Source: an uncultured Gammaproteobacteria bacterium (GTDB lineage: Bacteria; Patescibacteriota; Patescibacteriia; UBA9934). Taken from it: a stretch of DNA of 64,000 nt. Below the pieces are notes generated by a model. It ran no database searches. It was not told where the DNA came from and saw only the letters and a program-made list of their open reading frames with translations. The position numbers and the translations under genes are program-made. The first letter of the stretch is position 1. Every line of letters begins with the position of its first letter. Below are positions 2,221 to 49,613 of this stretch, piece by piece. Where the stretch lies: positions 24,923 to 88,922 of the forward strand of contig CAYJQH010000003.1 in the NCBI GenBank assembly GCA_964372415.1, in the 5' to 3' direction.

Positions 2221-2228
2221 AGCGGAAC

Positions 2229-3101: not shown

Positions 3102-3326
3102 TTACATCGTTACGAAAGGTAGGAGTCCAATGATGCGGGCACGTTTTATTTCAGCGGCAATTTGACGCTGGTGGCTCGCACAGACACCGCTTCGCTTGCG
3201 CGGCACGATCTTACCGAACGACGAGACAAAACGGCGTAGAATGTCGGTGTTTTTGTAATCAATCGTCGTATCTTTATTGACGCAGAAATAACAGTAACGA
3301 TCTTTGGTTGATGGTTTATGTGGCAT
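3102..3326 (-). CDS. rpsR: 30S ribosomal protein S18
   Basis: 74-aa basic protein with CYFC...RRFVS...GKI.PRKRSG S18 signature. Part of the rpsF-ssb-rpsR order. Confidence 0.9.
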   Translation of the reverse strand: MPHKPSTKDRYCYFCVNKDTTIDYKNTDILRRFVSSFGKIVPRKRSGVCASHQRQIAAEIKRARIIGLLPFVTM

Positions 3327-3332
3327 AACGAA

Positions 3333-3785: not shown

Positions 3786-3859
3786 CTAGACGAAAGAAAT
3801 CAGCCACTAAGACCAGTTGCGGTGCGCTGGTCGCAAATGAGCCAAAGAATGAAGTCGCC

Positions 3860-4336: not shown

Positions 4337-4339
4337 AGG

Positions 4340-4440
4340 TGACTTGGCCCAGGCGCTAGGCCGGGCAGCCTCTGGCAAATGCCTGAAGCTATGGACAAGA
4401 ATAAGTGGCAACACTTTAATAAAAAATCATTTTTTAGTCA
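4340..4440 (-). promoter_or_regulatory. Candidate rpsF promoter (-35 TTGACT, AT-rich spacer, weak -10) just downstream of a long imperfect hairpin at 4446-4508
   Basis: Read on the minus strand: hairpin caaagcctcca...tggaggctttg, then TTGACTaaaaaatgattttttatTAAAGT upstream of rpsF. Pattern-based only. Confidence 0.35.
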
Positions 4441-4523
4441 ACTACAAAGCCTCCAACCGCTGCCCTGGTCTTCGCTTTGTTGAAAGTCAGGGTCGAGGTG
4501 GAGGCTTTGTATGGTTAAAACCA

Positions 4524-7892: not shown

Positions 7893-7947
7893 CCGCCTAC
7901 GCGAACTCGACATCCATAAACCACCCTGTGGCCGGAAGTCGGGTTTT

Positions 7948-9033
7948 TTAATTACCACCAATTCTAAAATGACAAACATCGCCATCTTGCATGACGTATT
8001 CCTTACCTTCAAGACGTAATTTACCCTTATCACGTACCCCAACTTCGCCGCCGTAAGCTACAAAATCATCATACGAAATGACTTCTGCTCGAATAAAATT
8101 CTTGGCAAAATCAGTATGAATCACACCTGCTGCCTCTGGCGCCTTAGTTCCCCGTTTTACAGTCCAGGCCCGAGTCTCTTTTTGACCAGTTGTAAGATAA
8201 GTGATGAGTTCCAGAAGTTCGTAACACTTTTTAATAACCTTATCGAGCCCCGATTCTTTAAGTCCAAGGGCGGTCATCATGTCATTAGCTTCATCTGTAC
8301 TAAGGCCAGCCAACTCCGCCTCAATTTTAACCGAAATTGGAATTGTTAAACGGTTGGGACCGAGTGGCGACAGCCAATTCACCTCAACTGCGGCCGTCTC
8401 ATCAACGTTGACCACATACAAAATAGGCTTGGTAGTCATTAGCTGAATGTCTTGCACCGCTTCCTGTTCTTCCTCGGTGAGTTCAACCGCCCGCGCTAAT
8501 TCACCTTTTTGTAAGGCCATCTGCCATTTTTTAAGAGCTGAAGCTTGTGGTCCAAGATCAGTGTTCTTACCACCTTTCATTTTAGACGCCACTGCTTCAG
8601 TCAACTTATCAACCGTGGCCAAATCAGCCATGGCAAGTTCAAGTTCAATGACCTCAACGTCACGCCTCGGGTCAACTGAGCCGTCAACGTGCGTAATATC
8701 TGAATTTTGAAAGTCACGCACCACATGAACGATCATGTCGACTTCACGAATATTCGCTAAAAACTTGTTACCTAAGCCCTCTCCTTTGTGCGCGCCCTTA
8801 ACGAGTCCGGCGATGTCGACAAATTCAATAGCGGTTTTTATTTTTTTCTCGCTCTTCGACATTTGCGCGAGGACATCAACACGATGATCAGGAACTTCGA
8901 CGACGCCAACATTTGGCTCAATCGTGCAAAACGGAAAATTGGCACAATCTACTTGTTTCTTAGTAAGAGCGGTAAATAAGGTTGACTTTCCAACGTTCGG
9001 AAGACCAACTATGCCGACGTTTAACATACGCAC
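7948..9033 (-). CDS. ychF: Ribosome-binding ATPase YchF
   Basis: N-terminal P-loop GIVGLPNVGKSTLF, the central alpha-helical insert, and C-terminal TGS domain (VIHTDFAKNFIRAEV). 361 aa. Confidence 0.9.
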   Translation of the reverse strand: MRMLNVGIVGLPNVGKSTLFTALTKKQVDCANFPFCTIEPNVGVVEVPDHRVDVLAQMSKSEKKIKTAIEFVDIAGLVKGAHKGEGLGNKFLANIREVDMIVHVVRDFQNSDITHVDGSVDPRRDVEVIELELAMADLATVDKLTEAVASKMKGGKNTDLGPQASALKKWQMALQKGELARAVELTEEEQEAVQDIQLMTTKPILYVVNVDETAAVEVNWLSPLGPNRLTIPISVKIEAELAGLSTDEANDMMTALGLKESGLDKVIKKCYELLELITYLTTGQKETRAWTVKRGTKAPEAAGVIHTDFAKNFIRAEVISYDDFVAYGGEVGVRDKGKLRLEGKEYVMQDGDVCHFRIGGN

Positions 9034-12674: not shown

Positions 12675-15600
12675 TTATAGTGCCACAGCTGTATTTGTCT
12701 CGCTAGATTCACTCTGGATAGAATTCGTAAGTGCTTCTCCCGTCTCTAGAGGAGCTGTTAATTCGGGATCCGGAGTTGTCACGTTGGGCTCACTAGTTGC
12801 CGATTGAGATTCGGAAGTTACTAACTCTGGTTCATTTGTTGTTAATTCGGTTTCGTTCTGTACTGTCTCAGAATCTGTGGGTATTACCTCGGTTACAAGT
12901 ACGTCTTGTGCCTCTTGGACCTCTGTGGGCTCTTGAGCGAGCGGCTCGAAGTCTTTGTGGTAGGCAATAACAAGCCAGTCTACAAGAACCCCGCTCGCCC
13001 CACCTTCAGCATGAATAGTAAAGCCACCGTTTGAGCGATCGGTTACGTAAATCTGACCGGTAATACCCGAGGGGGTAACAAGGACACGATATGATGACCC
13101 GGGTGAGATGACGTCGTTAAACTTAGGATCAATTTGTTCGAACGATACGTTCACAAGTCCATTAACGAGCGTCGCGGTTCCCGACAGTTGCACCGTAGTC
13201 TCGCGGCTTGCCACAGCATACGTTTCAACCCTTTCATTTTGGAATGAATTGACTATCTGAATCAGACGCCCCTGCGTTTCAAGATCGCCATTTTCGGAAA
13301 TTTTCCAGAGCCCGTTACCGGCCACGATTGATGACACCCCAAGAATACTCCCGCCATTCATGGCAAGTGAGCCCGAGATATTCAGATTTGAAACATTACT
13401 CGATAGGTTAGAGACGATATTTTCGGCCATCGGTGTTTCAGCGATACTGCCATTTCCATCAAAGTAAGACGGACGAATGAAAGCCACAATTTTCCCTTCG
13501 TTTGAGGTCATTTCAGCCATGGCATAACCAAGAATTGGGCCGGGTTCGGTAGCTTTCATAGCATAACCGGGACGAGTTGAGGTGGTGAGTGGGTCACCAA
13601 CCGCAACCGAGCCATTTTCGTTTGTCACAAAGGTCGGCACGCGGCCAGCCAAAGCCACCGGATAATCACCAACTCGATTTTCACCGGCTAAAAATCCAGG
13701 ACGTGTCGAAATCACGCCAGCAATGCGATCGCTATATGGCTCATCGCCGGATTTTTTAACTTGTTCTTGGCCATCGCCAAAAACCACTAATTCGCCCGGT
13801 TTGAGAGTCTCCTTAGAAGGGAACATTTCAGCAAAGTCGTATGAACCCGTTCCCCAACCGGCCGCGTTCGTTCTCATGTAACCGACACCCGTTGGATCGT
13901 AGAAAATATAAGCATTAGTTTGGGTAATTCCATTTCCGGAGGGATAAAATTTGCCGCTTAAAACAAAGTCTCCAGTTTGAGTGATCGCCCCTACCTCAAC
14001 ACCGGCATTGTTGGTCACTGCCAAACGCGAATCGGCTGGTCCGATAACCTTATTTACCAGCCCCATGGTTACCGTTTGCGCCGAACTTCCATCCCAGGCC
14101 GAGCCACGGAACGTCAAAGCATTTGAATCTTGTAGTGGATTTGCGGCAGTCGCCTGAGCCACGGCCGTAAGCGCTACTTCATCCATAAGGAGTGCAACTT
14201 GACCATCGGTACTCAACACCTGTCCGGCATACCACTGGGGCGACACGTGAATCTTAATCAGACCTTGACCGGCAGATATAGACTCCAAGGCAAAACCGAT
14301 GATTGACGACGGACCATTGGCCCGTCCGGCATAACCTGGAACGAATGAGGAAGCCGTCACCGCATCACCAATATTGATTGGCCCATCAGCGGCTGAGGTG
14401 TAGGTAGAAATTTGACCCTGAAGACCAACAATCCGGTAGTTAGGATTATCTTCAAGCGATCCATCAGCGCCAGGAATATTGTTACCCACAAATCCCGGGT
14501 TCGGTGAAACTACACCGACAACGTCCCTATTCCCCGCCTCGCAACGCTTGACCGAATTAGCATTCAAACGATCACGACAAACCACATAAGAATCCTGAAG
14601 CGTTGGATCGTTGCTTCTGAAAAATTCAGCGTAGTCAGCGCCCGCGTTGTAGGTTGCACCGTCACCAAAAATGTCGCCGTCGTTTTCAAAACGGAACTCG
14701 GCATCCGGCGTGCCATCAGCATCCGAAACGATGAGTATGACTTCGTCACCATTTTGAGCCTCGTTGACGTTAATCACTAGAGCCTGCGAGGTAGCTGCCG
14801 TCGTGGCATCGGCTACGACGTCTTGAGTGATAACCAAACTCGATGACGTGGCAGCGGTGCTATCGTTACGAATCGACATCACATTGACATCGAAAGCCGT
14901 ATTATCCTGAAAGACATGAGCTATCGGTTGGTTGGCGGTCGCGCCAAGGTTGGTGTAAACCGTAAGGCCAAAGTCGATGTTCCCAGTGTTATCTATATGC
15001 ACTGCTCCACCAAGGGTTGAACTAACCGTTGACCCGGTATTACCGGAAGGATCAACAAAAATTGAGGAAGCGGTTCCGGAGTTGGCCAAATTAATAACGC
15101 TCACGCTCAAGGTACCGCTTGTGCCGCTATCTGCGAGCGATAACAGCGTGTTTGTGCCATCGGTGACGCTGAGCGTTCCCGTGCCGGCAATTTCGATGGT
15201 TGGCGAGGTATCGGCAAATACCAAATCAGAATCCCAACCAGTGCCGATTTCGATTGCATTCTCATCAGAACCGGTAGCCGTGATGTTGGCAATATTCAAC
15301 GCTCTAAACGTATCACCACCATCCCCTGAAGGCGTGAGCGAAGAGACGTTTATAGCGTTGGCAACTTGGCCAGAAACAGCTGTCCCAACTGCTTCGAGCA
15401 CAATGTCGAGACCGTCAAAACTATTGAAGCTAGCAAACCCGGAGTTGGTGATGGCTAAAAGATCATTGTTGGTTCCCGGTGACGCGGCGGCCACCACCTG
15501 GAGGTTTGAGTTAGAATCAGCATTTACTACAACGTCTCCTGAACCATTAGGAACTAAGAACAACGTTTCGTTTGTTCCAGTTGTAATATCGTTTGAAACA

Positions 15601-18600
15601 CCGCTAAGGGTAAGTGTGCCATCAGTGGTAATTGCATCTAGGCTCGCCGCGCCAGTCGCCCCGATAGACCAATCATTACCCCCGGTAATAGTAATTACCG
15701 TTCCGGCGTTTGAGTTACCAATCGTCAGTGTATCGGCCGTGGTCGAATTGGTGGCAACATTGATAGTGTTGCCCAAATCGGTGGTAACGCCACCAATATC
15801 GAGTGTCGTAGAATTTCCGGACGCATCAAGCAGGTTAAAGGTCGCTGAGGTGGAGGTAAAATCACCACCATTTAATGCCAAGTCACCGGTTGTCGTAACA
15901 TCGCCACTTGAGCCAACCACGTCAAAGTTTGTGAAATCAATGTTTGCTGTAGTACCAAGAAAAATGTTGTCACCGATATTGAGCGCATTAGTAAGCTCAG
16001 CATCAGAAACATCGATACCGTCAGTGATGCCACCAGCAGATGCCTGAACAATAATACCGTCCACCATGAGTTCGTTGGTGTCAGAATTCGTAAACACGGC
16101 CAGCGAATCAGGAACACCGGTACCTCCCCCATCATTCGCATTCTGAATAATCATGATGTTGTTACTTCCGGTATCAGCCGCCGCTGTATCGGTAAAAGCT
16201 ACAACAAACGCATTCAGGCTAACATCTGTCCCGTGCGTAACATCAATATTGAAGTTCTCCGAGGCAGCGCCATCGGTGACAAAGGTGAAATCAACGTCAT
16301 CATTTATGGCAAGCGTACCGAAAGAAGCGGCACCAGCAGCGCTGATCGACCAGTTGGCATCGGCAAGCGACACATTATCTAGGGCGTCTCCGATCGTGAT
16401 TGTATCGGCATCGGCATTTGTACCGAGTGTCAAGGTGTCGCAAGACGCTGAGTTACACAGCGAAACGCTCGTGGCGTTGGTGTCGCCAAGGGTTAAGGCT
16501 CCTCCAGCGTTTGTATCAAGACCAACACCCGCCGCCACGGTGATGGCACCGGCAGAGGAAACATCAAAATTATCAAAATTAAGTGTACCGGTGGTACCGA
16601 GAATTTCGTTTGCGCCTACAGACAAGGCAGTTCCAATCTCGTCGTCGGAAGCGTTGAAAGCGGTGGTAAGAGACGCCCCAGGATCGATGCCAAAAGTAAT
16701 ACCGTTCGCGACTATTTCGTTAGTATCTGCTGATTCAAGAATGATAAAGCCATCAGGAGTGCCGGTGGCTCCGCCATCATTAGCGTTATGCAGAGCTATA
16801 AAATAATTTGCTCCCGTGTCGGCGGCGGCGGTATCGGTCATGAGCATCGTGAGCGGCGTCATACTGACATCCGTGGCGTGCGTTACGGTAATCGCTAAAT
16901 TTTCTGACTGCGCACCATCGGTTGTAAAATTGAAGTTCACGTTGTCGTTCGCTGTGAGATCGCCACCAAAAGTGGCCAGGCCGGCACCAGTAATCGACCA
17001 ATCATCACCGCCCGTAATGGCCACAGTCGTGGCCGCATTGCTGTTACCGACAGTTAAAACATCTGCCGTAGTTGAGTTCGTGGCGATATTCACTGTGTTG
17101 CCAAGGTCAGTCGTCACGCCGCCGAAATCAAGAGTTGTCGAAGCGCCAGCTGCGTCCTGAAAGTCGAACGTGGCAACTGACGACGTAGCTATGGACCCAT
17201 CGCGGTAGCGTGTTGAAGCACCGCCGGCAGTGAATCCGACATCAGATAAAAACTCACCCGAAGCCGTAATCCGAGCCTTGGTAGTATCGGCTGCCGTGCC
17301 GGAATTGGTGGTTTCATCTGTAATAAGTGTAAAAACGTCATTGTTGGTGTTCCCGTTATCAAAATCGATGAATAAGGCTTGGGCGGTGGCCGTAGCTGAA
17401 CTTGAGAACATTTCAACGATGTTGCCGGTAGCCGCCCCAGAAGCCGTGAACTGGAACATGTTATCCGACCAAGCGCTGCTGCTTCTAATGTTGGCAATTG
17501 AACCGCTCGTCAAAGCATTAGTATCAATATCAAGCAGGTTGCCTGTTGTCAGAGCCGTTGCATCAAGCATGAAAACCTCGCCCGAGGTAGCAGTCGTATT
17601 AGTAAAATCTAGTGTCGCGTCATCTTTAAAAGTAAAGAAAGTAGCACCACCATCTTGAACCACAAAATCTCCAGTCGAAGTCAGGTTCACGACAGTATTA
17701 GCCGAAGAACCGTTAGTAACGGTAAACGTCTCGGCCCCGTCGAGAGCGATTGAGGTTGAGGCATCGAGGTCTAATGCGTCTTCAAACGAGTCGAAATCAA
17801 GACAATCCGTACACACCAAATCGCTCACCGTCGCTACACCGGCTGTAGTAATACTCCAGTCGTCACCACCTGTAATGGCGATAGTCGAGGCAGCATTGGA
17901 GTTACCGATGGTGATAACGTCAGCAGTCGTGACATTCGTCGCGATGTTTATAGTGTTGCCGAGGTCTGTAGTGACGCCGCCAATGTCGAGAGTTGTCGAG
18001 TTAGCCGCTGCGTCAAGAAAATTGAAGGTGGCAGAAGTCGAAGTAAAATCACCGCCGTTCAGTGCCAAATCGCCGGCTGAAGTAATGTTCCCACTCGCTC
18101 CTAGGACATCAAAATTGGTGTAATCAATATTACCTGTGGTACCAGCCAAATCATTCGCGCCAACCGACAGAGCGGTTACTATTTCAGCATCACTTGCGTC
18201 AATCGCCGCGGTCAAAGCGCCGGCTGCTACATCAAATAAAATACCTGTGGCCACTGCCTCATTGGTATCCAAGTGGCGCAACCCCAGGAGCGCGTCGGGT
18301 GTGCCGGTCGCTCCCCCATCGTCCTCGTTGTCGATGTTGAGCAGGATTACCGTTCCCGTATCGGCTGCGGCTGTGTTAGTCGAATTCAAACTTATGACAG
18401 AAATCGAAGAATCTACAGCGTGTGTGTGATCGATGGTTAAATTTTCAGCTCCCACGCCACTTGTTGCCAAAGTAATGTCTAAATCACCACTGAGCGATAA
18501 GTCGTCGTTGGTACCAAGTTGAACAACACCTGAAGAATCAATGGTTAACGTGCCGTCACTTGTAATGTCATCGCCGTTAATTGCCAAGTCACCGGTTGCT

Positions 18601-19304
18601 ACAATATCGCCCTCCTTGTCGACGCGGAAAATTGAGGTGCCACCATCGGCTACACCAAAAATCGTGTCGTTCGCTGCCGAATCAACAGCCGCTGGATTGA
18701 TGTAAAGGGAACCAGCCGAAACACCGGAACCTGACGGGTTACCGGTCACGACCAAGTTACCAGATGAATTGTAAGCCACGATGGCCGCTGCCGTCGCGCC
18801 GTCGTTATCGGCGTCAAGACCATCGAGGGTTTCGGAATTCAAGGCGTATGGCGCGGCGACGATTTGTTTTCGCGGACTTAAAACCTCGCCAGCAACAGTT
18901 ACCTGAAGAAACAAGGCTGCGTTATCGGCAAAAATTGCATCACTGATTGCGGCATAAGGTGTGGCAGCAGCGGTATCACCCAAATTTTCTGAAAACAAAC
19001 CGTCGGTCAAAGTCACGGTCCGTGCGGTCGCCGAAGCACACGTTGCAGATGAGTTCGACCACACACAAGAACCGCCCGACGAGGCCGTGTAGAACTCAAA
19101 GATCATGCTGACCGAAGCGCTTGAAAGCGGTATACCGTTGGCATTCAATAATCGACCTTGATAAGTAATTATGTTGGGCGCTGAGGCGGCCTGAACGATC
19201 GGCGTCACTCCGCTCACAGGACCCAAAGCAAAAATACAAAGCGTCGCCAGCAGAAATCTGGCGACTTTTGTCGCGCTGAATTTAGACTTGAGATGCGTTG
19301 TCAT
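12675..19304 (-). CDS. Giant (~2,200 aa) secreted repetitive surface protein
   Basis: Signal peptide ([28 protein letters not shown]). N-terminal module [16 protein letters not shown]...[13 protein letters not shown] resembles modules of phage-tail-fibre-like bacterial proteins. About 1,400 aa of Thr/Ser/Gly/Asp/Asn-rich beta-repeat units ([23 protein letters not shown]..Tx[14 protein letters not shown] recurs at least 3 times). Duplicated ~150-aa C-terminal domain (...[14 protein letters not shown] / ...[14 protein letters not shown]). Acidic Thr/Glu tail. The longest ORF begins at 19424. The Met before the signal peptide at 19304 is preferred. Confidence 0.7.
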
Positions 19305-21777
19305 GAAGTTCGTCGAGCGTCCGATGAAGACCCACGTTGACGGTGAGTGGTGCCGGCTCTGCTTGAGTGGTAGTGATTGGTTTGATGATCTTTTCCACAA
19401 AACCGGGTTTACTAACACTCGCATAATACTCGTTCGGACCGAGCAAGAACGAATAACGCCCGAGACGATCTGTTAAGGTCGACTCGATAAGCTTATTATA
19501 CCGCGGTTCAAAGAGCCTTATGACGGCGTTGCTCACAGGTTTATGCGTATTTTTATCGTAAACAATTCCCCAGCCTTTTGGCTTCTTCTTGTATACTAGT
19601 TTAAGCACCAGTAACAGCACTATAAATTGAATTCCGAGCATTGCTCCTGCAGCCAGGCTCGGGGCGATGATCAAGACGACTATTGAGATTCCCAGTCCCG
19701 ATAAGCCAAAAACAAGCTGGATTGTTTTTAAAAGTCGTTCGACAGCTAATTTTCGAGGTGCGTGAAATTGGGGCGCGTCAGACGGATCAAGTGGAATATT
19801 GGCTGTAACATTGGTTTTTTGCTCCGATACCTCAATATCTTCACCATGATAAACATCAAGATATTGACCGTCCGTTTTGATTTCGGCCAAATATTTACTG
19901 GGAAAGTTAAAACCTGGCTTTATTACCTCAAGGCGATACCTTCCTGGTTCAGCAAATACATAGAATCGACCTTCAGGGCTAGTAACGGTCGACTTCACAA
20001 GTCGATGTTCCGGCATACGGAACACGCGAATAGTGGCTAGACCTATCGGCACTTTAGTTACCGCGTTGTAAACTCGGCCAAAAGGGCGGCGTCGTTTTTT
20101 ACCGAAAAGTAAAGCTGGCGAAGTAAAAATGTAAAAAATAAAAGGCAGTAAATTTGAAACCGTCGCGAGGAGGGCAAGCGATACCAAGGCGATTGCGGCA
20201 GCCAATGGAAGGCCTATTCTGGCGATTGCCTGGGCAAGGGGGGCGTCAAGAATGTTACGTAGAAAAGGTGGCTCGAAGGGCGTTTCATCTGGTGTGATTA
20301 TAGGCACTAAAAGACGCTCAAGACGAACGTTAATAGTTAGAATGTTGTTTGTCACATTAACCTCAAGAGCAACATCCTCATAACCCGATTTGCTAACTAT
20401 GACTCGATAAGGACCGTTCGGCGTATACCAACCAATTAAACCATCGTCACCTGTTAAAACCGGATTTTCCTGATTAAAAACAAAGGCTTCCCAGGCTACA
20501 CCTGGCCCTTCTGAAAGATCATAAACGGTAACCACAGCTCCGGAAACAGGTACTACTTCGTCGTCAATAATCTCGTAAACAAGGCCAGAATCAGCGATAT
20601 CAATAAACACTGTGGCAGTCGCTTCTGTGTCATCAGCAAAATGCACAATGGTTCCAAGGGCGTCGTCAGAAACTGGGACGGGCACCAAACCCGAAAACAC
20701 GTTCGGCTCTTTAGTCGGTGAGAGTACGTATTGATCGTCACCTAAGACTACAACCACGCTTGTCGCCGCATCTTCAGAGTGAACAATAACTTCAACCTCA
20801 GCATAGGTTCCAGGCAGGACCTCTACCCCACCGTCGGCATCATCAAGGCGAAAGTCGTCAACTGCAATAATATCAATCTCGACCCGCGGTTCATCTATTA
20901 ATTCATTATCCGTTTCCTCATCTTTGGGCCCGTCTGGTGATGGCGTTGGGGTCGTTTCTGGAAGAGGAACTGATGGTGGCTGTGGCTCGGGAGTTGGTTC
21001 GGGTTCAGGAATCGGCTCGGGAGTTGGTTCGGGTGTAGGTTCCGGTTCAGGCTCAGGAATTGGTGTAGGCTCTGGCTCGGGAGTTGGTTCGGGTGTAGGT
21101 TCCGGTTCAGGCTCAGGCTCAGGTTCTGGTTCAGGTGACGGGGGTGTCGGATTCGACCCTCCTCCGCCTCCCCCACCGCCTCCGCCTGATGATGTTACAA
21201 CCACGCTCACCGAGTCACTACCAGCGCTCGTGTAAGGAAGGGGTATTGAGCCATCATTGCCTGAGGTTCCACCAAGCGTCAGGTAGTAAGTGCCGGGAGT
21301 TGAAGGATTCGTAATTCTATTAGCGCCAGAACCCGATGCCGCGGCGTTCGTACCAATTTCAACTGTTACCACACTACCGTTAGCCATCGCTCCCCCGTCC
21401 CCGGCACAAATGGTCAGAGTGAGGGTACCTGATGACATAGCTACCGAGGCCTGTTCAGCCCCAGCACACGTTGCTGCAGTTGTTAAATCAACCCCATCAT
21501 CAGTAATGTCGACATCATCCTCAACAATCGAGCTCGTCGTAAAACTACTTGGAAAAACTAGAGTTATTGTTTCACCCTCCGCCCAGGCGTCGACAAGCGT
21601 AAAGGTAAATTTGTGATTTGCAGTTTGTGACGTAACAAGAGAAGTTGGCTGATCAGAAAGGCTATCAACCGCAAGCGCCATCACCCACACAGGAACAATT
21701 AAAAACATGCTGACTAGCACTAAAAGTGTGGTCAGCGACTGACTAAAACAACGCTGCGCCCTCCGCCCGTCGTTCAC
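19282..21777 (-). CDS. Secreted/polytopic protein with Gly run, Pro-Glu-Thr linker and two CarboxypepD_reg-like beta-sandwich domains flanked by TM segments
   Basis: Signal peptide. G11 run followed by [18 protein letters not shown]... linker. Two TM blocks and two paralogous domains ([20 protein letters not shown]... / [21 protein letters not shown]...). Confidence 0.6.
20940..21180. repeat. Tandem ~63-nt DNA repeats encoding the Pro-Glu-Pro-Thr linker
   Basis: ggctcgggagttggttcgggtgtaggttccggttcaggctcagg... recurs in tandem at about 21016-21141 with flanking degenerate copies. Confidence 0.6.
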
Positions 21778-21788
21778 AATTGCTTACA

Positions 21789-22682
21789 CTATACGCGACG
21801 GAATTGTCGCCAAACAAATAATAAAATGACAACGATTAATCCGCCTACGAGCGCCAAAATACGCCAAGGAAATAGTACCACGTTTGTGGTCTTAAAAATT
21901 ACACTTTGGCCATCGGCTGAAAGCAATTCAAGAGTAGCCGTGTACGGACCAATGTAAATGCCTGAATTAGGTTGCCAATTAATCGTAAATACCCGACTCG
22001 TTCCGCCGGGAATTCGTCGCGGAATTTCAATCAATGGCAAGGCTGCTATATCTTTTCCCCACATGTTTGTAAGCACCACCTGTCCTACAGGCTGTGTGGT
22101 AGCTTGGCCTTGATTTGTTAGAACGGTGATGAATCTTATGGGAAAAGTGCTTGTAAACTTCGGTGTCGCCTCAAAAGACGAAATAGTTAGGTCGGCTTCC
22201 AAAACATCCCCGATGGTCATAAAAAACAAGGCTGCGACTCCTTGCCTAACCGATACGCCGCCGGTTACCTCTGCAGATTTATTTTCTTGTTGGGCAATTA
22301 AGGCCACCGTTACTACTCTGCCTGATGCTTCGCCTTCCGGGCTAATACTTAGATCAATAGCTCTAGTGCTATGTGGTGTAAGTTCAACCCGTTGAGTAGT
22401 CAGTTCAAACCAGTCTTTCATATCTTCCGGAAGTTCAGAAAATACGAGGTCGTCAGCGCTTGATCCGAATTCTACGAGTTGAAGCGATAAATTATACGTC
22501 TCTGTTTGATTGTTTTCGTTTATTAAATGCAAGGTTCTGACCAATTCCGTGCCAGGATCAATTACAACGTCAGTTGCATCTGGATCAAAACGAACTGCGC
22601 TCGCCGTAGTAGTCAAAAAGAAACTTGAGGTTATCCCAAGGATGCACAACAATACTCGAAATTTATTAGTAATTACCGACAA
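21789..22682 (-). CDS. Secreted protein with C-terminal TM anchor (two beta-rich domains), hypothetical
   Basis: N-terminal signal peptide. C-terminal hydrophobic helix plus RQFRRV stop-transfer. The architecture resembles DUF916-type surface-cluster proteins but that could not be confirmed. Confidence 0.5.
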   Translation of the reverse strand: MSVITNKFRVLLCILGITSSFFLTTTASAVRFDPDATDVVIDPGTELVRTLHLINENNQTETYNLSLQLVEFGSSADDLVFSELPEDMKDWFELTTQRVELTPHSTRAIDLSISPEGEASGRVVTVALIAQQENKSAEVTGGVSVRQGVAALFFMTIGDVLEADLTISSFEATPKFTSTFPIRFITVLTNQGQATTQPVGQVVLTNMWGKDIAALPLIEIPRRIPGGTSRVFTINWQPNSGIYIGPYTATLELLSADGQSVIFKTTNVVLFPWRILALVGGLIVVILLFVWRQFRRV

Positions 22683-23571
22683 AAATGAAGGTCAACGAAT
22701 GGGAGTATGAATTACTCTGAATGCCGGAATCAACAGCTGATTTGAGAGTTAAAAAATCACGCGACTTAAAGGATACCGCCGATCGACTGGCGATTTGCTG
22801 AAGCGAGGTGGTAAAAGCAGAGTCTTCTGTATCAAAAGTTGATGAGGCAAGCGTAGTATCTGATGATTTTGCGCCGTATTCTGTACTACCTAACGATACC
22901 GAGCCGTCTGTAACATCACTAATCACGGGTGTGCCAGCGGGTGCCCTGAGTTCGCCATCCTCAAGCACGAACATGCTGTAACCGCTAGGTACGTCAGATG
23001 TCACTTCCCAGCCGATGATTCCAGTACTAGCAGTAGTCGACGATAATGATGAGAGCGGCAGACTAGTACCCGAAAGCTCGTAGACGTAGTCGCTCACGCC
23101 ATCAATCGTTGGACTTGATGAGCCAGTTGTTAAAAAATCGACGATTAATGTTGAGCCGCCAATTGAGGTAATTTTGCCTGTGGCCGAAATTTGACTTAGT
23201 CCCTCGTCCTGGACAATTGCGATGTAATCTCCCGTCGAGTAACCGGAGGTCGAAGTTACGGTTACGGTCGTGCCGGTCAGGGCTGTGGCTCCAACCTGCG
23301 AGTTAAGATCCTGAGAAAACAAGCTGAAGAAGACAGTTGGATCATAAATACCTGAACGAAAACCAGAATCCAAACGATAAGATGCAGATGACGATATACC
23401 AGCAAGACCTGACTCAAGCGAATCTCTAAGTCTGTATGAGCTAGATGAGCTCGTATCTGAGCCGCCTGAATTAAGGGAATCCCACTGAATTTGGTAAGTC
23501 GTTGAAGTCATGCTAGCAAAACCGAAATTTGGAGCAAAAAAAAGCAAACCAACAACAAGCACCGTAGACAT
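22666..23571 (-). CDS. Ser/Thr-rich secreted protein, hypothetical
   Basis: Signal peptide MSTVLVVGLLFFAPNFGFASM. Low-complexity S/T-rich body. First gene of the minus-strand surface operon. Start chosen at Met 23571 rather than ORF start 23637. Confidence 0.45.
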   Translation of the reverse strand: MSTVLVVGLLFFAPNFGFASMTSTTYQIQWDSLNSGGSDTSSSSSYRLRDSLESGLAGISSSASYRLDSGFRSGIYDPTVFFSLFSQDLNSQVGATALTGTTVTVTSTSGYSTGDYIAIVQDEGLSQISATGKITSIGGSTLIVDFLTTGSSSPTIDGVSDYVYELSGTSLPLSSLSSTTASTGIIGWEVTSDVPSGYSMFVLEDGELRAPAGTPVISDVTDGSVSLGSTEYGAKSSDTTLASSTFDTEDSAFTTSLQQIASRSAVSFKSRDFLTLKSAVDSGIQSNSYSHSLTFIFVGNY

Positions 23572-23645
23572 CTTTTTGCCAATATTTACAGGCATAATCT
23601 GCTGAACACAATAAGTCGTCAACCGTCTGTTTAGCAAGCTTTTTT

Positions 23646-23654
23646 GTGGATAAC
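23646..23654. promoter_or_regulatory. Perfect DnaA box (TGTGGATAA) in the AT-rich region upstream of the surface operon
   Basis: Exact 9-mer match to the TTATCCACA complement. Near-matches follow (tgtccacac, taatccaca). Confidence 0.35.
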
Positions 23655-23927
23655 TTTTTAAAAATTTTTTAATTTAATTTGTCCACACTAGCGTAGACAA
23701 ATTCTTTTGCGTTCGTGAGTCGTAAAACATAAAATATTTTTCTTAAAATAGTTTGTTGCCCACATTTAATCCACAGTTTCACATAAAACGTCGCAGCTAA
23801 CGTTAGCATAATTTAAGCAATTAGCAGAAAACTATCAACAGAGTAACGTGGTCACAAACATAAACGTTATTTTTTTGACGATTTTGACGATAACAAATGA
23901 AAAAATCTCATTAAATTGATTAATACG

Positions 23928-24392: not shown

Positions 24393-24400
24393 AAAACACA

Positions 24401-24435
24401 CCCAAGTTTGGCCACCTTCGTCGTCGTTCGCTCCG
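24401..24435 (-). promoter_or_regulatory. Conserved ~35-nt leader block immediately 5' of tRNA-Arg(CCT)
   Basis: cccaagtttggccaccttcgtcgtcgttcgctccg matches ccaagtttggccatcttcgtcgtcgttcgctccg (30815-30848) 5' of tRNA-Arg(TCT). Weaker homology (cttactcg...ctag) extends about 60 nt further upstream in both copies. Confidence 0.4.
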
Positions 24436-30799: not shown

Positions 30800-30814
30800 G
30801 TACTGAAAACCTAT

Positions 30815-30848
30815 CCAAGTTTGGCCATCTTCGTCGTCGTTCGCTCCG
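30815..30848 (-). promoter_or_regulatory. Conserved leader block 5' of tRNA-Arg(TCT), paralogous to 24401-24435
   Basis: 34 of 35 nt identical to the block upstream of tRNA-Arg(CCT). Confidence 0.4.
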
Positions 30849-36494: not shown

Positions 36495-37724
36495 ATGATT
36501 GACTATCGTTTGTCTATTCCGCTTCAAGATATTACCCCCGCCACGGCTCGTCTGTGGCGGGTGGTTCGTGTCACAAGTCTGATCGGGCTCGGCGTTCTTA
36601 TTGGTATCTTATGTTTTCGCCTAATCACTTTTTGGCCCCGAATAAATAACTGGCCAGAGGGAGCGACAACTGCTATCTACCTTCAAAAAACATCAGAAAA
36701 CTTAATGGTTAGCGGCGATGTCCTAGCCGATAGACTGATCAATCAAAAAATACCCTCATCGATCTTTGAAGAATTAGCTCATTCCGAGCGTGGCATAACC
36801 CTTTTCTTTGATCAACAAGGACAAGTCTTGGGCTTTGCGACTGATCGCAAGCTATCGGCCCGGGAATTGGCGGTTTATGATCTTTGGGGACTTACAATTC
36901 AAACTCACGGCCGTTTAACTATTGTGAGTCAATCGGAGACCGAAAGGTTGTCGCGTGTCTCGTTCGCTTGGTCGTCGATCTGGCCGCAGAACGACGGTTT
37001 CGTGGCTATTAAAAGCGATAAGGTACATATCAGCCCCATAAGTCTCACCCCATTTTACATAACTGTGCGCGGAGATTTTGCTGACTATCTCGCAGACTCT
37101 CACCTAGACCTTCCAGAACAAACAAGCCTTTCAGCTGCCTGGAGCACACCTAAAGTACTAGCCCCCAAGTTAATACCCATGATTCCGAGCAGTTTCCCTG
37201 GTCTTCAGGAACTGCGCCAAATTATGATTGAGCATGGCTTCTCGATGCTTTTAGGGTCAGACACGCAAGGCACAAGCTTTTCTCTCTATATTAGAACGGA
37301 GATCGATCCAGAAAACCTAGCAAAAGCCGTATCTGAACTTCTTCAAATCAGTAATTTGTCTACACAGGACTGGACATTTGACGGAAATAACTATCTCGAG
37401 CTTCGTGGGCAAGAGGTAACAGTTGAATTAGCTCATGACACCAACCTCGATCGGGTAGTGGCTGAGGCTCAAAATGGGCAGATCGTACGCGCAAGCCAAG
37501 CTAATAATACCCTAATAATCAGCAATAGAATTTTGGATATTTCGCAAACTTCAGAGAAAAAATATGGCTTATGCTCAAAACAGGCTCAAGGATTCATTCA
37601 ACCCTTGTCGCTCGCCAAGATTCTCCCTTTACAAAACGTTTACGGACCGAACGACTTCTCCAGTCTAGTTCTAGGATTAACTGAAATTTCCTGGTCAAAA
37701 ACGAAAATTTGGTTTTGTTGGTGA
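36495..37724 (+). CDS. Hypothetical membrane-anchored protein (409 aa)
   Basis: Single N-terminal TM helix. No conserved motif recognised. The stop overlaps the first DnaA box of the downstream cluster. Confidence 0.45.
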   Translation: MIDYRLSIPLQDITPATARLWRVVRVTSLIGLGVLIGILCFRLITFWPRINNWPEGATTAIYLQKTSENLMVSGDVLADRLINQKIPSSIFEELAHSERGITLFFDQQGQVLGFATDRKLSARELAVYDLWGLTIQTHGRLTIVSQSETERLSRVSFAWSSIWPQNDGFVAIKSDKVHISPISLTPFYITVRGDFADYLADSHLDLPEQTSLSAAWSTPKVLAPKLIPMIPSSFPGLQELRQIMIEHGFSMLLGSDTQGTSFSLYIRTEIDPENLAKAVSELLQISNLSTQDWTFDGNNYLELRGQEVTVELAHDTNLDRVVAEAQNGQIVRASQANNTLIISNRILDISQTSEKKYGLCSKQAQGFIQPLSLAKILPLQNVYGPNDFSSLVLGLTEISWSKTKIWFCW

Positions 37725-37726
37725 TG

Positions 37727-37798
37727 TGTGGATAAATCCTGGATAACATCATACTTATCCACAAATAACCAAATGCTTGTTCGGATGATTTATCCACA
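37727..37798. promoter_or_regulatory. DnaA-box cluster: three perfect plus one near-perfect TTATCCACA boxes in 72 nt
   Basis: TGTGGATAA (37727-37735), ccTGGATAA (37738-37746, 7/9), TTATCCACA (37755-37763), TTATCCACA (37790-37798). First two inverted, last two direct. Followed by an AT-rich stretch and a ~530-nt ORF-free gap. Confidence 0.6.
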
Positions 37799-38328
37799 TG
37801 TACTGTATTTAGATAATGTTTATAAGGGCTAGATGAGTGTTTACAAAATGTGTTCAGTCTATGGTATAGTATTTTTTGCAAACGTTCTTTACACAATCCC
37901 GTCATGCCTCAAGCGAAAGCTAGAGGTTATGACTTAGGGGAAGTTTCCCGAAGACCCCACAATCATTCTTCGGGAAATACCTCACTGCTGTACTGTCCTA
38001 GACACCACCCATAACCACGTGGGCTTACTTGCTGAGCCCTTGAACGTGTTGTGCAAGCAAGGCGCACCCCGGGATGGTAGAGCAGGTCTGTCACTCGTCT
38101 GACATGCGTCCAGAGACCCGAGAGACGTTGAGTTTTTTCGAAATTCGCAATAAATTAAAGAATTTCGCAAAAACCCAACGCCTCCCTGTGGATCTGACCT
38201 CATGTCGTCCCACAGGGGACGTTATCGCCCAGGATTTTTGCATCCGCCTGTAAGCGCTACGCCCCCTTTTCTCTTTTTCGTCCCTCTGCTACTGTCCAAC
38301 ATAACCCTGACTCACGTTCATTGATGTT

Positions 38329-38703
38329 ATGAAAGAAAAATTTTTAGAAGAAATGAAAAATTCTCTTCTTGAAGAGAAAAAACGCCTGGAAACAGAGCTG
38401 TCACGCTTTACACACCGCAATCCCAAGGCTGCTGGCACTGATTTTGATGCTGATTATCCAAATTTTGGTGAGTCGGAGGACGAAAACGCGGCCGAAGTCG
38501 CCCAGTTTGGCGACAATCTGTCCCTAGAACAAGAACTTGAATCTGCCTTAAAAGACGTTGAATCAGCCATGAAGGCGGTTGATAACGGCTCGTACGGTAC
38601 TTGTAAGTACTGTAAGCAAAAAATTTCTGAAGAGCGTCTCCGGGCTAGACCGACATCAACATCTTGCGTTGTGTGCAAAAAAACGCTTACGCAGGAGGTT
38701 TAA
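38329..38703 (+). CDS. DksA/TraR-family C4 zinc-finger protein
   Basis: Coiled-coil N-terminus and C-terminal CxxC-(17)-CxxC finger (CKYCKQKI...CVVCKK). Confidence 0.7.
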   Translation: MKEKFLEEMKNSLLEEKKRLETELSRFTHRNPKAAGTDFDADYPNFGESEDENAAEVAQFGDNLSLEQELESALKDVESAMKAVDNGSYGTCKYCKQKISEERLRARPTSTSCVVCKKTLTQEV

Positions 38704-39131
38704 CGCTGCTCGCCATTGGCCTTATTGATGCCTGGCTTAAGGTCTACGCCTTGCAACATTTCCCCGAGGAGCAGACTGCTCCACTGGCAGCTTTTTTTTC
38801 GCTAGCTGTTCATAAAAATCCTGGGATTATATTCGATATTCCGCTCCCTTTTTGGTTCACTGCACCCATTACTCTGATTCTAATAATAATTCTTTTAGCC
38901 ATGACTCGGCGGGGAATCGTTCAAAAAGAAGCGCTCCTTTTTTTAGGTGCCTGGTCGGCCATCGTTGGTGCCACAAATAATTTTTTCGACCGCTTGATCA
39001 ACGGCTTCACCACTGATTACCTCATTTTTTTCCGACTTTCTGCAATCAACTTGTCGGATGTGCTTATCTGCCTTGGCATCGCCTTACTCCTTTGTTACCG
39101 TCCAACTAACTCCCGCGCACAGCAAAACTAA
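38664..39131 (+). CDS. lspA: Lipoprotein signal peptidase II
   Basis: Four TM helices with LspA motifs (VHKNPGIIF; TNNFFDRLINGFTTDYL; AINLSDVLICLG). The true start is uncertain. TTG 38664 overlaps the upstream gene, and a CTG at 38706 follows a GGAGG. Confidence 0.7.
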   Translation: MRCVQKNAYAGGLTLLAIGLIDAWLKVYALQHFPEEQTAPLAAFFSLAVHKNPGIIFDIPLPFWFTAPITLILIIILLAMTRRGIVQKEALLFLGAWSAIVGATNNFFDRLINGFTTDYLIFFRLSAINLSDVLICLGIALLLCYRPTNSRAQQN

Positions 39132-46622: not shown

Positions 46623-46836
46623 ACTGCGAATAGTCTACATTTTTTGCAAAAATTGGTCAAACTCAAACAATATTCACACCACTTATGAGGTTATCCACAC
46701 TTTTACCCACCTTATACACACCGTTCACCTATTTAAAGAGCATTGTTACCTGTGGACAGATCCGCTATGATGTGGCACATCTCTATATGGGGGTACGTCG
46801 ATCTCCCGAGATTGAAAATATGGTATTCGCGCGTTT
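46623..46836. promoter_or_regulatory. rpmH/dnaA divergent control region with DnaA boxes (oriC left part / dnaA promoter)
   Basis: Perfect TTATCCACA at 46691-46699, plus TGTGGACAG (46751-46759) and TGTGGCACA (46771-46779) near-matches. Confidence 0.5.
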
Positions 46837-48225
46837 ATGAACACGCATGAGCTTTGGCAGGCCGTACTTGGTCAGATCGAACTTAAAATTAGTCGGGCGC
46901 ACTTTTCTACCTGGTTCAAAAAAACCTTCATTTGCGAATACCGAACCGGCACCATTATCGTGGCTGTGCCGAATTCGATTGCCCAATCCTGGCTTGAAAA
47001 GAAGTATTATCGTGACATTCTCGAGGCCTTTCAAAATATCATTAATCAACCGGTTCGAAGTTTGACTTACCGCGTTGAAACTAAGTCAAATGGTCCGCAA
47101 CCGATTATTTTAGAGAGCCCTAAACTCACTCCGTCAACACCAGAAGACTACGGTTTTACGCCTACAAATGGGGCCGATGTAGCACCACCCTCGGGAAATA
47201 TCACCCTAAACAATACTTATAACTTTCAAACCTTCGTGGTGGGCAAACAAAACGAGCTCGCCCACGCCGCCTCGCAAGCCGTAGCCGCACAACCAGGAGG
47301 CACCTATAATCCGCTATTTATTTACGGAGGTGTCGGCCTTGGTAAAACCCACCTTTTACATGCTATAGCTAACGAAATACGCCATCGCTGGCAAAGTGTT
47401 CGTATTATGTACGTAACTTGTGAGCACTTTACGAATGATTTTATTCACTCTGTACGTACCGGAAGAGGTAAGGAATTTAAGGATCGCTACCGTAACGTTG
47501 ACCTCTTACTGATTGATGACATTCAATTTATTACCGGAAAAGAGGGTACTCAGGAAGAATTTTTCCATACTTTCAACACCCTACACCAAGACAATAAACA
47601 GATCGTTATTTCTTCAGATCGACCCCCAAAATCAATTGCTGGCCTAGAAAAACGCCTTCAATCGCGTTTGGAGTGGGGGATGTTGGTCGACGTCGGCACA
47701 CCTGACCTTGAAACCCGTATCGCCATTCTTCAAAAGAAGTGTTTAGAACGCGGTTTAGATCTTGATCGCGATTCTCTTCAGTACGTAGCCTCAACGATCG
47801 CTTCAAATATCCGTGAACTTGAGGGTGCTTTAAATAAAATAATCGCCGTTCATCAATTCAGAAATATTTTACCGTCTCTTGAAACAATCAAGCCAATTCT
47901 CGCAAGTTTCGAGGCTGAAAATGTTAAAAAAACCGTCACCCCTAAGCAAGTAATTCATATCGTGGCTGAATATTTTGATATTTCAATCGAAGAGGTGCTC
48001 GGTAAAAGCCGTGAAAAACGTTTGGCTTTCCCTCGACAGATAATTATGTATCTATTACGTGAGGAAATGAAGAGTTCATACCCCACAATCGGCACCGAAC
48101 TTGGTGGCCGTGATCACACGACCGCCATGCATGCCCACAGTAAAATTGCTTTACTTGTCGAGAGCGATGACAAGCTACAAAAAGATCTCGAACTGATCAA
48201 GCAACGTCTTTATGTAGGAGGTTAG
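46837..48225 (+). CDS. dnaA: Chromosomal replication initiator protein DnaA
   Basis: N-terminal domain I. AAA+ with Walker A GGVGLGKTHLLHA. Box VII. C-terminal DNA-binding domain IV (..IGTELGGRDHTTAMHA..). Confidence 0.95.
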   Translation: MNTHELWQAVLGQIELKISRAHFSTWFKKTFICEYRTGTIIVAVPNSIAQSWLEKKYYRDILEAFQNIINQPVRSLTYRVETKSNGPQPIILESPKLTPSTPEDYGFTPTNGADVAPPSGNITLNNTYNFQTFVVGKQNELAHAASQAVAAQPGGTYNPLFIYGGVGLGKTHLLHAIANEIRHRWQSVRIMYVTCEHFTNDFIHSVRTGRGKEFKDRYRNVDLLLIDDIQFITGKEGTQEEFFHTFNTLHQDNKQIVISSDRPPKSIAGLEKRLQSRLEWGMLVDVGTPDLETRIAILQKKCLERGLDLDRDSLQYVASTIASNIRELEGALNKIIAVHQFRNILPSLETIKPILASFEAENVKKTVTPKQVIHIVAEYFDISIEEVLGKSREKRLAFPRQIIMYLLREEMKSSYPTIGTELGGRDHTTAMHAHSKIALLVESDDKLQKDLELIKQRLYVGG

Positions 48226-48228
48226 GGA

Positions 48229-48476
48229 TAACGTGAGGACAAATCCGTGGACAAAGGGAGGTATAACTAGGAGGATAATTTAGTGGATAAGCTGCGTATA
48301 AAATCGACTAACACCATCCGTTCGTAGTTATCCCGTTTTAAGTAGACACCTGTGTCACTATTAATCCCCATGGGCGCCAGCAGAAAACCACGGTAAGATA
48401 CGGTCGCTCGTAGTTACCCCCGCGATCCATAAGCTTACTGTTACTACTATTTATTAATATTAATAATCAGTTTCCT
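48229..48476. other. Candidate oriC (dnaA-dnaN intergenic): DnaA-box-like sites plus AT-rich unwinding element
   Basis: TTATCCACT complement at 48282-48290 (8/9), CGTGGACAA (48246-48254), gttatccc, and a 35-nt stretch of more than 85% AT (ttactactatttattaatattaataatcag) just before dnaN. Confidence 0.5.
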
Positions 48477-49613
48477 GTGAAGCTCTCTTGCACCAAAGAG
48501 AACCTTAATCAAGGTCTCTCCGTTGTGAGTCACGTAAGCGCCAAAAACGCCAACCTACCTATTTTGAATAATGTATTACTTAGAGCCGATGTTGGTGGAC
48601 TAAAACTCACAGCGACAAATCTAGATATTACTGTGACCTGTCAGGTTAGGGGAAAGATCGACCAACCCGGAGAATACTCCGTACCCTCCAGGCTTCTTTC
48701 TGATTACGTAAGTTTGTTGCCTGACGAGCGAGTTGATCTAGATCTTCTAGATAACGCTCTAGCGGTCGTTTGCGCAAGTTCAAAAACAAAAATCAACGGA
48801 CTTCCAGCTGGTGAATTCCCTCTTGTTCCGCAGATTACCGGCGGAACAAAGTACGAAGTGCCGGTTGTGCACCTTGATGATGCACTGGGCCGTGTTTTAT
48901 TCGCGGTCGCGACGAGCGAGGCCCGTCAGGTGTTAACTGGAGTTCATCTAGCGTTCTCAGGCGAGAAAAAATCAGTCATTGTGGCGGCCACGGATAGTTA
49001 TCGTTTGGCTGAATCCCAAGTACCACTCGTCGGCGAGGTAGTTATGGGGGAGCGAAAAGTTATTGTGCCCTCACGAACTCTGTCTGAACTTCGTAGAATC
49101 ATTAGTGTTTTAAAAAATTCAGCTGAAATTCCAGAAAAAATTGAAATTGAAGTAGCCGAAAATCAAATTGCTTTCCGTTACGGTAACGCTGAAATCTCCT
49201 CACGCACTATTGATGGCGTTTATCCCGATTACCAACAGATCGTACCTAAAACGTCGAACACCGAGGTTGTAGTGCCACGCCAAGCCTTGGTACAGGCCAT
49301 CCGTCGAACCAGTTTGTTCTCCAAACAGGGACTTTTTGATGTTAAGCTTGAGCTTAAAGAAGGAGGTAAAGAAATTACTTTATTAGCCAACGATTTAGGC
49401 CGCGGTGAGAATACGGTGCTACTCGAAGCTGAAATTAAAGGCAAAGACAACGCGGTCATGCTTAATTATCGATATGTGCTCGACGGTTTAAACGCGATGA
49501 CGTCAGAACAGGTGGTTATAAAGCTTATCGACGGAGTAAATCCTTGTGTTATCGCCCCCAAAGAGAACGCTGAGCAAGGATACTTGTACATTGTGATGCC
49601 CATTCGGTCATAA
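48477..49613 (+). CDS. dnaN: DNA polymerase III beta sliding clamp
   Basis: GTG start. 378 aa. Three-domain clamp (MKLSCTKENLNQGLSVVSHV...). Confidence 0.9.
   Translation: MKLSCTKENLNQGLSVVSHVSAKNANLPILNNVLLRADVGGLKLTATNLDITVTCQVRGKIDQPGEYSVPSRLLSDYVSLLPDERVDLDLLDNALAVVCASSKTKINGLPAGEFPLVPQITGGTKYEVPVVHLDDALGRVLFAVATSEARQVLTGVHLAFSGEKKSVIVAATDSYRLAESQVPLVGEVVMGERKVIVPSRTLSELRRIISVLKNSAEIPEKIEIEVAENQIAFRYGNAEISSRTIDGVYPDYQQIVPKTSNTEVVVPRQALVQAIRRTSLFSKQGLFDVKLELKEGGKEITLLANDLGRGENTVLLEAEIKGKDNAVMLNYRYVLDGLNAMTSEQVVIKLIDGVNPCVIAPKENAEQGYLYIVMPIRS

Follow-up and report, generated by a model that had tools for sequence, protein, structure and literature searches.

The cluster of DnaA boxes at 37727-37798 of the window, by which is meant the whole 64-kb stretch of DNA analysed here, appears to be the control region that lies upstream of a conserved, structured and independent noncoding RNA gene of about 400 nt, a reading that comparative sequence analysis favours at a probability of roughly 0.55. 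It is a tentative proposal, close to an even bet though short of one, that this RNA represents a new class of large RNAs (about 350-440 nt) in Uhrbacteria-like bacteria, with its promoter wired to DnaA and with a role as a riboregulator or ribonucleoprotein scaffold that is coupled to replication or to the cell cycle; if true, such a regulator or scaffold would operate in ultra-small bacteria with reduced genomes.

Bacteria have few large structured RNAs that occur throughout a lineage and lack a known function, and OLE, ROOL and raiA each started a line of research; in the Patescibacteria (CPR), next to nothing is known of either cell-cycle control or RNA biology. The RNA described here comes with a built-in clue, namely a DnaA-box module whose spacing to the RNA promoter is conserved. 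To our knowledge, no large noncoding RNA has been described as a DnaA target, and none was found in the literature searched; a search of the literature on CPR/Patescibacteria noncoding RNAs and DnaA boxes likewise yielded no description of such an RNA.

The intergenic gap and its predicted RNA

The gap is preceded in the window by rpsO, an NYN nuclease gene, the PNPase gene and the orphan gene X (36495-37724, plus strand), and is followed by a gene for a DksA/TraR-type zinc-finger protein (dksA; 38329-38703, plus strand; Pfam PF01258, E = 3e-8), lspA, comM, an M23 peptidase gene on the minus strand and the trigger factor gene, with dnaA (46837-48225) and dnaN (48477-49613), both confirmed, further along. 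Gene X encodes a fast-evolving protein of 409 aa that is homologous between loci at just 25-50% identity; a homologue search returned gene X itself as the sole match, an exact look-up of it retrieved no contig, and neither profile searches against Pfam and the PDB nor a single-sequence AlphaFold model (pLDDT 39.5) was informative. The gap itself (37725-38328) had been described as free of credible ORFs, and this holds: stop codons occur in all six frames, in the window and in 13 relatives alike, and no conserved ORF was found. The companion statement that the genome is otherwise tightly packed does not hold throughout the window, which contains several other gaps of 500-950 nt.

Related loci were gathered through dksA or comM, and none through the boxes. 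A comM-based scan, the matches of which came mostly from unrelated phyla at approximately 50% identity, contributed two useful loci only, the syntenic L007 (from a Candidatus Uhrbacteria MAG) and the more distant L049; metagenome contigs searched with aligned DksA sequences supplied L082-L134, and exact look-ups of DksA homologues supplied L135-L138. Source names place the loci in Candidatus Uhrbacteria/Patescibacteria. Because of collection through dksA, the adjacency of RNA and dksA is a biased observation, whereas the adjacency of boxes and RNA is not. A shared layout of gene X, boxes, promoter, RNA and dksA was recognized in 21 Patescibacteria loci, mostly of Candidatus Uhrbacteria, and alignment resolves it into a fixed order: the boxes come first and are followed by roughly 40 nt of AT-rich spacer, the promoter, about 350-440 nt with conserved blocks, a GC stem, then CTTTTCTTTT, a spacer of 50-600 nt and dksA.

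Comparative evidence indicates that the gap is filled by a conserved structured noncoding RNA gene, the expression of which is predicted from promoter and terminator motifs. From motifs and alignment we infer its promoter, its start and its 3' end, which place the RNA at about 37878-38278 on the plus strand (about 400 nt); among Uhrbacteria-like loci its length ranges from approximately 350 to 440 nt. Folds gave z-scores of -5.0 and -6.1, the latter for the window RNA as a single sequence, and RNAalifold on 11 sequences returned 68 consensus pairs in five main helices, with compensatory changes in 39 of the 68. In a MAFFT alignment made from sequence only, 90.8% of cells were paired, compared with 77.6% after shuffling and 41-55% with slid partners, and the covariation score was 0.449 versus 0.216; on four of five measures, none of 500 shuffles reached the observed value. 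An initial suggestion that an unassigned noncoding RNA was plausible here has thus turned out to describe the main content of the gap.

Since an nhmmer profile of the RNA fell short of the distant groups, covariance models were needed; these were built for the present analysis, and their E-values are rough. The first, R1, covers H2/H3 and was seeded with group A; it recovered six unseeded loci (L093, L110, L091, L094, L098 and L096) at E-values of 4e-8 to 2e-4 and gave a single marginal match in 972 kb of unrelated loci. In its model alignment both sides have changed in 28 of 33 pairs, a count biased towards the structure, as the alignment is fitted to the model. The second, R2, covers H4/H5 and matched at the expected place in L100, L097, L110, L096 and L095. 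Pair counts were taken from the MAFFT alignment (A3), because a model alignment (A7) includes reverse-strand matches of the hairpin-rich domain. The RNA is assigned to the plus strand on account of the direction of the promoter and U-tract, an invariant U-G pair in H2, and R2 scores of 76-125 bits on the plus strand as opposed to 16-42 bits on the minus strand.

Read from its 5' end in the window, the predicted RNA opens with the motif GUUCUUU (37884-37890; GUUCCUU in group B), which is unpaired in the fold and lies 5-18 nt past the predicted start in most loci. When targets complementary to the 5' GUUCYUU were sought near start codons, recurrent matches appeared only inside the conserved NYN/rpsO and comM coding regions and were therefore uninformative. 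A lineage-specific hairpin (37901-37933 in the fold of the window RNA) precedes helix H1 (37938-37983), the loop of which is the site of variable insertions; H1 contains tttcccgaag/cttcgggaaa, a strong hairpin that had been pointed out earlier and is both real and conserved. In the H2/H3 domain (37985-38085), H2 (37985-37999 with 38071-38085) closes a linker, which is G-poor, A/C-rich and single-stranded, and the hairpin H3, which is loosely aligned in the window. A tmRNA-like tag ORF in the A-rich linker was considered and rejected, as members differ in length by amounts that are not divisible by three.

The 3' part comprises a long irregular hairpin, H4 (38122-38184; compensatory changes in 16 of 21 pairs), a further hairpin in the fold of the window RNA (38183-38216) and the terminator-like element H5 (38214-38278), in which the stem AGGGGACG (38214-38221) with CGCCCCCT (38260-38267) is followed by the U-tract TTTTCTCTTTTT (38267-38278), all on the plus strand. 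The H5 stem shows covariation, and group A has kept the T-tract; in the window the H5 loop measures 38 nt, and a terminator scan made no plus-strand call inside the gap. When group B was folded alone, the same layout emerged, with a 5' tail bearing GUUCCUU, H1, and H2 around an A-rich linker and H3, followed by H4, again long, and by a terminator hairpin composed of a long GC stem and U8; in L049 the H2, linker and H3 arrangement was recognized by eye.

Gene callers place spurious ORFs on the RNA in one relative (L136), and in another (L135) they set the start of dksA too far upstream, within the RNA.

DnaA boxes and the predicted RNA promoter

The window contains five perfect DnaA boxes (TTATCCACA/TGTGGATAA) where 0.41 are expected, and none of 100 shuffles of the window reached five. 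The initial annotation had arrived at the same tally by eye, which proves complete, and had located four boxes within 72 nt, three perfect and one matching at 7 of 9 positions, which the present analysis bears out (37727-37798). The other two perfect boxes lie at 23645 on the minus strand and at 46691 on the plus strand. The 9-mer of the cluster also occurs in the dnaA promoter of this genome, and domain IV of its DnaA retains the GGRDHTT..HA..KI recognition motif associated with canonical box recognition.

Box 1 (37727-37735) is perfect, lies on the minus strand and reads TGTGGATAA on the plus strand. It had been said to overlap the upstream stop codon, which is incorrect: the TGA of gene X occupies 37722-37724, and box 1 begins after a further 2 nt and is merely adjacent, unlike the first box of several relatives, which does overlap the gene X stop or ORF end. 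A perfect or 1-mismatch box holds the position of box 1 in 20 related loci. The weak box (37738-37746, minus strand, CCTGGATAA, 7/9) likewise has counterparts in several relatives, where a site with two mismatches follows box 1 at 11 nt. Box 2 (37755-37763) and box 3 (37790-37798) are perfect copies of TTATCCACA on the plus strand, and between box 3 and the promoter runs an AT-rich spacer (37799-37839) with two 2-mismatch box-like sites starting at 37808 and 37817; the length of this spacer is conserved within lineages, but its sequence is not.

Across the relatives, wherever a locus includes sufficient upstream DNA, perfect or 1-mismatch boxes occur several hundred nt upstream of dksA. The 21 loci (215 kb) contain 40 perfect boxes, of which 36 lie no more than 200 nt ahead of the RNA promoter, an enrichment of approximately 450-fold. 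The first box lies between -47 and +15 nt from the gene X stop in 17 of 18 loci examined, the exception being L049 (+89), and the boxes remain perfect where the neighbouring protein X falls to 25-30% identity. This pattern of conservation argues for genuine boxes that are maintained by selection.

The predicted RNA promoter (37840-37870, plus strand) consists of a -35 element, TTTACA (37840-37845), a 19-nt spacer and an extended -10 element, TGgTATAGT (37862-37870). Although its -35 is weak and its spacer long, it aligns with TTGACn-17-TGnTATAnT, a sigma-70-type promoter, in 20 relatives. A consensus promoter scan of 37300-38800 made no call, and its strict form missed the RNA promoter because of the 19-nt spacer.

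Measured from the start of the -35, the boxes begin at -113, -85 and -50 in the window, at -111, -82 and -47 in L135, at -102, -84 and -49 in L082, at -122/-123 and -91/-92 in eight group A loci, where the intervening sequence is unconserved, and at about -135 and -115 in group B (L094 and L110). Box 2 keeps both its orientation and its offset in L135 and L082, the two nearest relatives, and box 3 has counterparts at -47 to -50 in these two and in L097; in most other Uhrbacteria (group A) loci its place is taken by a conserved degenerate TTGAACAC. Box orientation varies between lineages, and common descent in the absence of indels could explain part of the fixed spacing.

A second promoter candidate, an extended -10 element TGcTACTGT (38287-38295, plus strand) read from the sequence, stands between the RNA and dksA, and TGnTAGnCT or TTGATT-17-TATAAT is found in the same interval in L007, L086, L089, L087, L088, L049 and L097; dksA is thus probably served by a promoter of its own, separate from that of the RNA. 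In L093, an opposite-strand 23S_rRNA_IVP gene (E = 5e-31) is inserted between the RNA and dksA, and the boxes are still found beside the RNA promoter, which shows that the RNA does not depend on dksA in one lineage or more. The earlier idea that the boxes control a dksA/lspA/comM promoter gives way on these grounds, together with the conserved offsets, to one in which they serve the promoter of the RNA.

In the mechanism that we propose, two or three high-affinity DnaA boxes at lineage-fixed distances from the sigma-70-type promoter would anchor DnaA, and the weaker box-like sites that occupy part of the interval between the strong boxes and the -35, among them those starting at 37808 and 37817 in the window, would be covered by cooperative extension of DnaA. 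Such an extension would tie the output of the RNA promoter to the DnaA (replication-initiation) status of the cell, by activation or by repression. The exposed 5' motif and the G-poor linker would be the parts through which the RNA works in trans; a trans-acting regulatory or protein-binding RNA is its most likely role, although this is a guess. Binding of DnaA, transcription of the RNA and modulation of its promoter by DnaA are all predictions of this model.

Alternative readings of the boxes and the RNA

Pure titration is a serious rival, if on balance an improbable one: the cluster would be a DnaA reservoir, comparable to the clusters of B. subtilis or to datA/DARS in E. coli, that buffers or recycles DnaA; it would lie beside an RNA gene by chance and would have no effect on the RNA promoter. 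Its appeal lies in three to four boxes outside oriC that are conserved across deep divergence, a conservation that titration explains equally well, and in the distance of the strongest boxes from the -35, which is 85-123 nt across the loci and exceeds typical operator positions. Distances of this order are far for simple repression or class-I activation. The site also lies only about 10.5 kb from oriC, and 9 kb from dnaA, in the window. That proximity, however, is not a conserved property: in L135, L137 and L138, dnaA is absent from the 10-kb flanks of the cluster, and the 9-kb distance seen here is therefore not conserved. Titration would also leave unexplained why the offsets to the -35 are fixed though the spacer sequence differs and why the boxes accompany the RNA promoter when the neighbourhood changes, as in L093, and two or three strong boxes would make for a small capacity. 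Titration and regulation may nevertheless coexist.

Decidedly less probable is that the RNA is a long cis-acting leader, akin to an attenuator or riboswitch, of the dksA-lspA-comM operon, through which DnaA would control the operon. In all loci examined the RNA does precede dksA and share its orientation, its terminator-like end could serve as an expression platform, and in the window only a weak candidate promoter separates the two. However, the adjacency is biased by the collection of loci through dksA, the spacing between RNA and dksA ranges from about 50 to about 600 nt, and separate promoters (TTGATT-17-TATAAT, TTGACA-17-TACTAT and similar) precede dksA in several loci. A bona fide gene on the opposite strand interrupts the arrangement in L093, and a length of about 400 nt with five helices far exceeds known leaders.

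We give little credence to the view that the boxes serve mainly as a DnaA roadblock that halts read-through from gene X into the RNA gene. The narrow placement of the first box at the gene X stop in 17 of 18 loci, and the lack of a canonical terminator between gene X and the boxes in most loci, would suit such a function, but tight packing may be mere genome compaction, a terminator-like hairpin lies before the boxes in L049 and after them in L083-L085, and box orientation differs between lineages. DnaA roadblocks are reportedly orientation-dependent, according to work on asnC/mioC in E. coli.

It is equally hard to credit that the RNA is an extremely divergent housekeeping RNA, be it SRP RNA, RNase P RNA, tmRNA or 6S RNA. 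A size of about 400 nt would fit RNase P RNA and tmRNA, the strong promoter and high conservation would be in keeping with a housekeeping function, and the segment 38055-38085 loosely resembles 4.5S RNA. This last likeness, which had been singled out as SRP-like, is accounted for by the segment being the 3' strand of the covarying helix H2; the initial annotation was right to reject an SRP-RNA call, and no SRP model matches. At gathering thresholds, Rfam 15 gave no match in the window, and at E-values of up to 10 none of its 4227 families matched the gap beyond microRNA-type noise. Nor did the nine related loci scanned show a recurring match at the RNA position, with no match in L007 and L049 at E-values of up to 1 and, in seven further loci scanned at E-values of up to 10, no recurrent weak match. 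Although the RNase P RNAs of CPR bacteria are diverged, they are detected with RF00010 at lowered thresholds (PMC8172020), and no such match was obtained here. ARAGORN found no tmRNA, and the GGAAGCAGC helix-8 motif, P4-type motifs, a 5'/3' closing stem and a tRNA-like end were absent on reading the sequences. Given the lack of an Rfam match and of P4-type and helix-8 motifs, the RNA is treated as an undescribed family.

The DnaA-box cluster is not oriC. The global minimum of the cumulative GC skew in the window falls at 48839, in the dnaA-dnaN region, so the initial placement of the origin context at dnaA/dnaN rather than at the cluster stands, and the skew at third codon positions (on the plus strand) shifts by about +0.2 at approximately 49 kb in genes of both orientations, with no such shift at 37.7 kb. 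Over 8-kb flanks, the skew at the dnaA-dnaN spacer runs from -0.052 on the left to +0.057 on the right, whereas at the cluster it runs from +0.007 to -0.065, the wrong direction for an origin; in five relatives (L135, L137, L138, L007 and L049) there is no skew minimum at the equivalent cluster. The dnaA-dnaN spacer moreover holds several degenerate boxes together with a run of TAC/TAT trinucleotides and a block of AT-rich DNA (48436-48470). The earlier description of the cluster as a real, non-random DnaA-box site separate from oriC is upheld. That the site is nonetheless a second origin or, as had been proposed, one half of a bipartite one is barely credible: the cluster is followed by AT-rich DNA and has more perfect boxes than the dnaA-flanking regions, but that AT-rich DNA aligns with the conserved -35/-10 promoter, no skew switch accompanies it, and closeness to dnaA is not conserved. 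Origin finders that count boxes could take this site for oriC.

Comparison with known systems

Among the systems that the locus calls to mind, oriC shares the succession of DnaA boxes and AT-rich DNA, but the cluster lacks a GC-skew switch and does not lie beside dnaA in relatives, and its AT-rich part is a predicted promoter; the signals of a true origin are found in the dnaA-dnaN spacer instead. The DnaA-box clusters (DBCs) of B. subtilis and the datA, DARS1 and DARS2 sites of E. coli are closer parallels, in that each consists of a few high-affinity boxes grouped in an intergenic region outside oriC and conserved among relatives. The present cluster differs from them in having just two to four boxes and no recognizable IHF or other accessory site, and in that its distance from a promoter is fixed, its orientation varies by lineage and its closeness to oriC is not conserved. 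Promoters regulated by DnaA, such as those of dnaA and nrdAB in E. coli and of dnaA and sda in B. subtilis, resemble the locus in the grouping of consensus boxes upstream of a sigma-70-type promoter and in the combination of strong boxes with weaker neighbouring sites. Here, however, the regulated gene would be a large structured noncoding RNA instead of a protein gene, a distance of 85-123 nt separates the strong boxes from the -35 downstream of them, and regulation is predicted.

With respect to the RNA, the 3' strand of H2 (GGAUGGUAGAGCAGG) is superficially like the 3' strand of helix 5 in bacterial SRP (4.5S) RNA, but the RNA has neither a helix-8 motif nor an Rfam SRP match, and it carries three further domains that SRP RNA lacks. 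The H2-linker-H3 domain recalls 6S RNA in its sequence of stem, large internal loop and stem; this loop is, however, almost wholly one-sided (about 20-30 nt versus 2-5 nt), and the RNA is twice as long and is not matched by the 6S model. The nearest likeness in kind is to OLE, ROOL, GOLLD and the raiA motif, which also measure several hundred nt, contain several covarying helices, are restricted to one lineage, possess their own promoter and terminator and have a biochemical function that is not known. From these the RNA is set apart by the lack of any sequence or structure match in the Rfam scans, by its occurrence in Patescibacteria and by its upstream DnaA-box module, which is unique to it.

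Likely origin of replication and a second group of DnaA boxes

The origin of replication proper likely comprises the dnaA-dnaN spacer (48226-48476) together with the dnaA promoter region (46625-46836), the latter of which carries a perfect DnaA box (46691) as well as one with a single mismatch (46712). Degenerate boxes (GGGATAAC, GTGGACAA, AGTGGATAA at 48282, and TTATCCCGT) occur in the spacer and are followed downstream by a run of TAC/TAT trinucleotides plus an AT-rich block (48436-48470), and the minimum of the cumulative GC-skew falls at 48839.

A small second group of DnaA boxes is found at 23645-23775, consisting of a perfect box at 23645 (minus strand) and two plus-strand boxes with one mismatch each, at 23679 and 23767. 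These boxes are set in an AT-rich spacer, flanked on one side by the start of a minus-strand orphan gene (22666-23637), which is without a Pfam match, and on the other by a minus-strand tRNA-Ala gene; the group is possibly another DnaA-controlled promoter.

Genes flanking the predicted RNA

Located between the PNPase gene and the DnaA-box cluster that precedes the predicted structured RNA, gene X is an orphan reading frame belonging to a syntenic family of 410-480 aa (36495-37724 in the window, 3226-4515 and 7041-8279 in the related loci L007 and L135, respectively, and present in other loci too). The family is fast-evolving, with 25-50% identity where DksA retains 65-78%. An N-terminal helix is predicted in the product; profile searches against Pfam and the PDB gave no match, and a single-sequence AlphaFold model (pLDDT 39.5) was unusable.

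On the other side of the RNA, related locus L093 has an insertion separating the RNA from dksA, namely a 23S_rRNA_IVP gene (four-helix-bundle) encoded on the opposite strand (1999-2292, minus strand), and the RNA-dksA adjacency is therefore breakable. Two public gene calls overlap the RNA in related loci, namely a 92-aa call covering its promoter and 5' part (L136, 2427-2705) and a DksA call whose start has been extended to give 169 aa, running into the RNA 3' end (L135, 8729-9238); both look like annotation artefacts that arose because the RNA went unrecognised.

The Logan contig ERR4904390_49266 is an independent assembly whose dksA product is identical to that of the window, and its DksA, LspA, and M23 proteins all match their window counterparts at 100% identity. 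Its first position corresponds to window ~37969, and the contig thus breaks off inside the RNA gene, in the loop region of helix H1 (37938-37983).

Repeats elsewhere in the window

A 2249-aa reading frame (12675-19424, minus strand) contains 216-nt repeats, and a separate small reading frame bears tandem, GGn-rich 12-nt repeats (20972-21141, plus strand). Finally, a 43-nt direct repeat occurs in two copies (24393-24435 and 30806-30848; 91% identity), each directly 5' of one of the two tRNA-Arg genes encoded on the minus strand (anticodons CCT and TCT), for which the repeat may serve as a common promoter or leader element.
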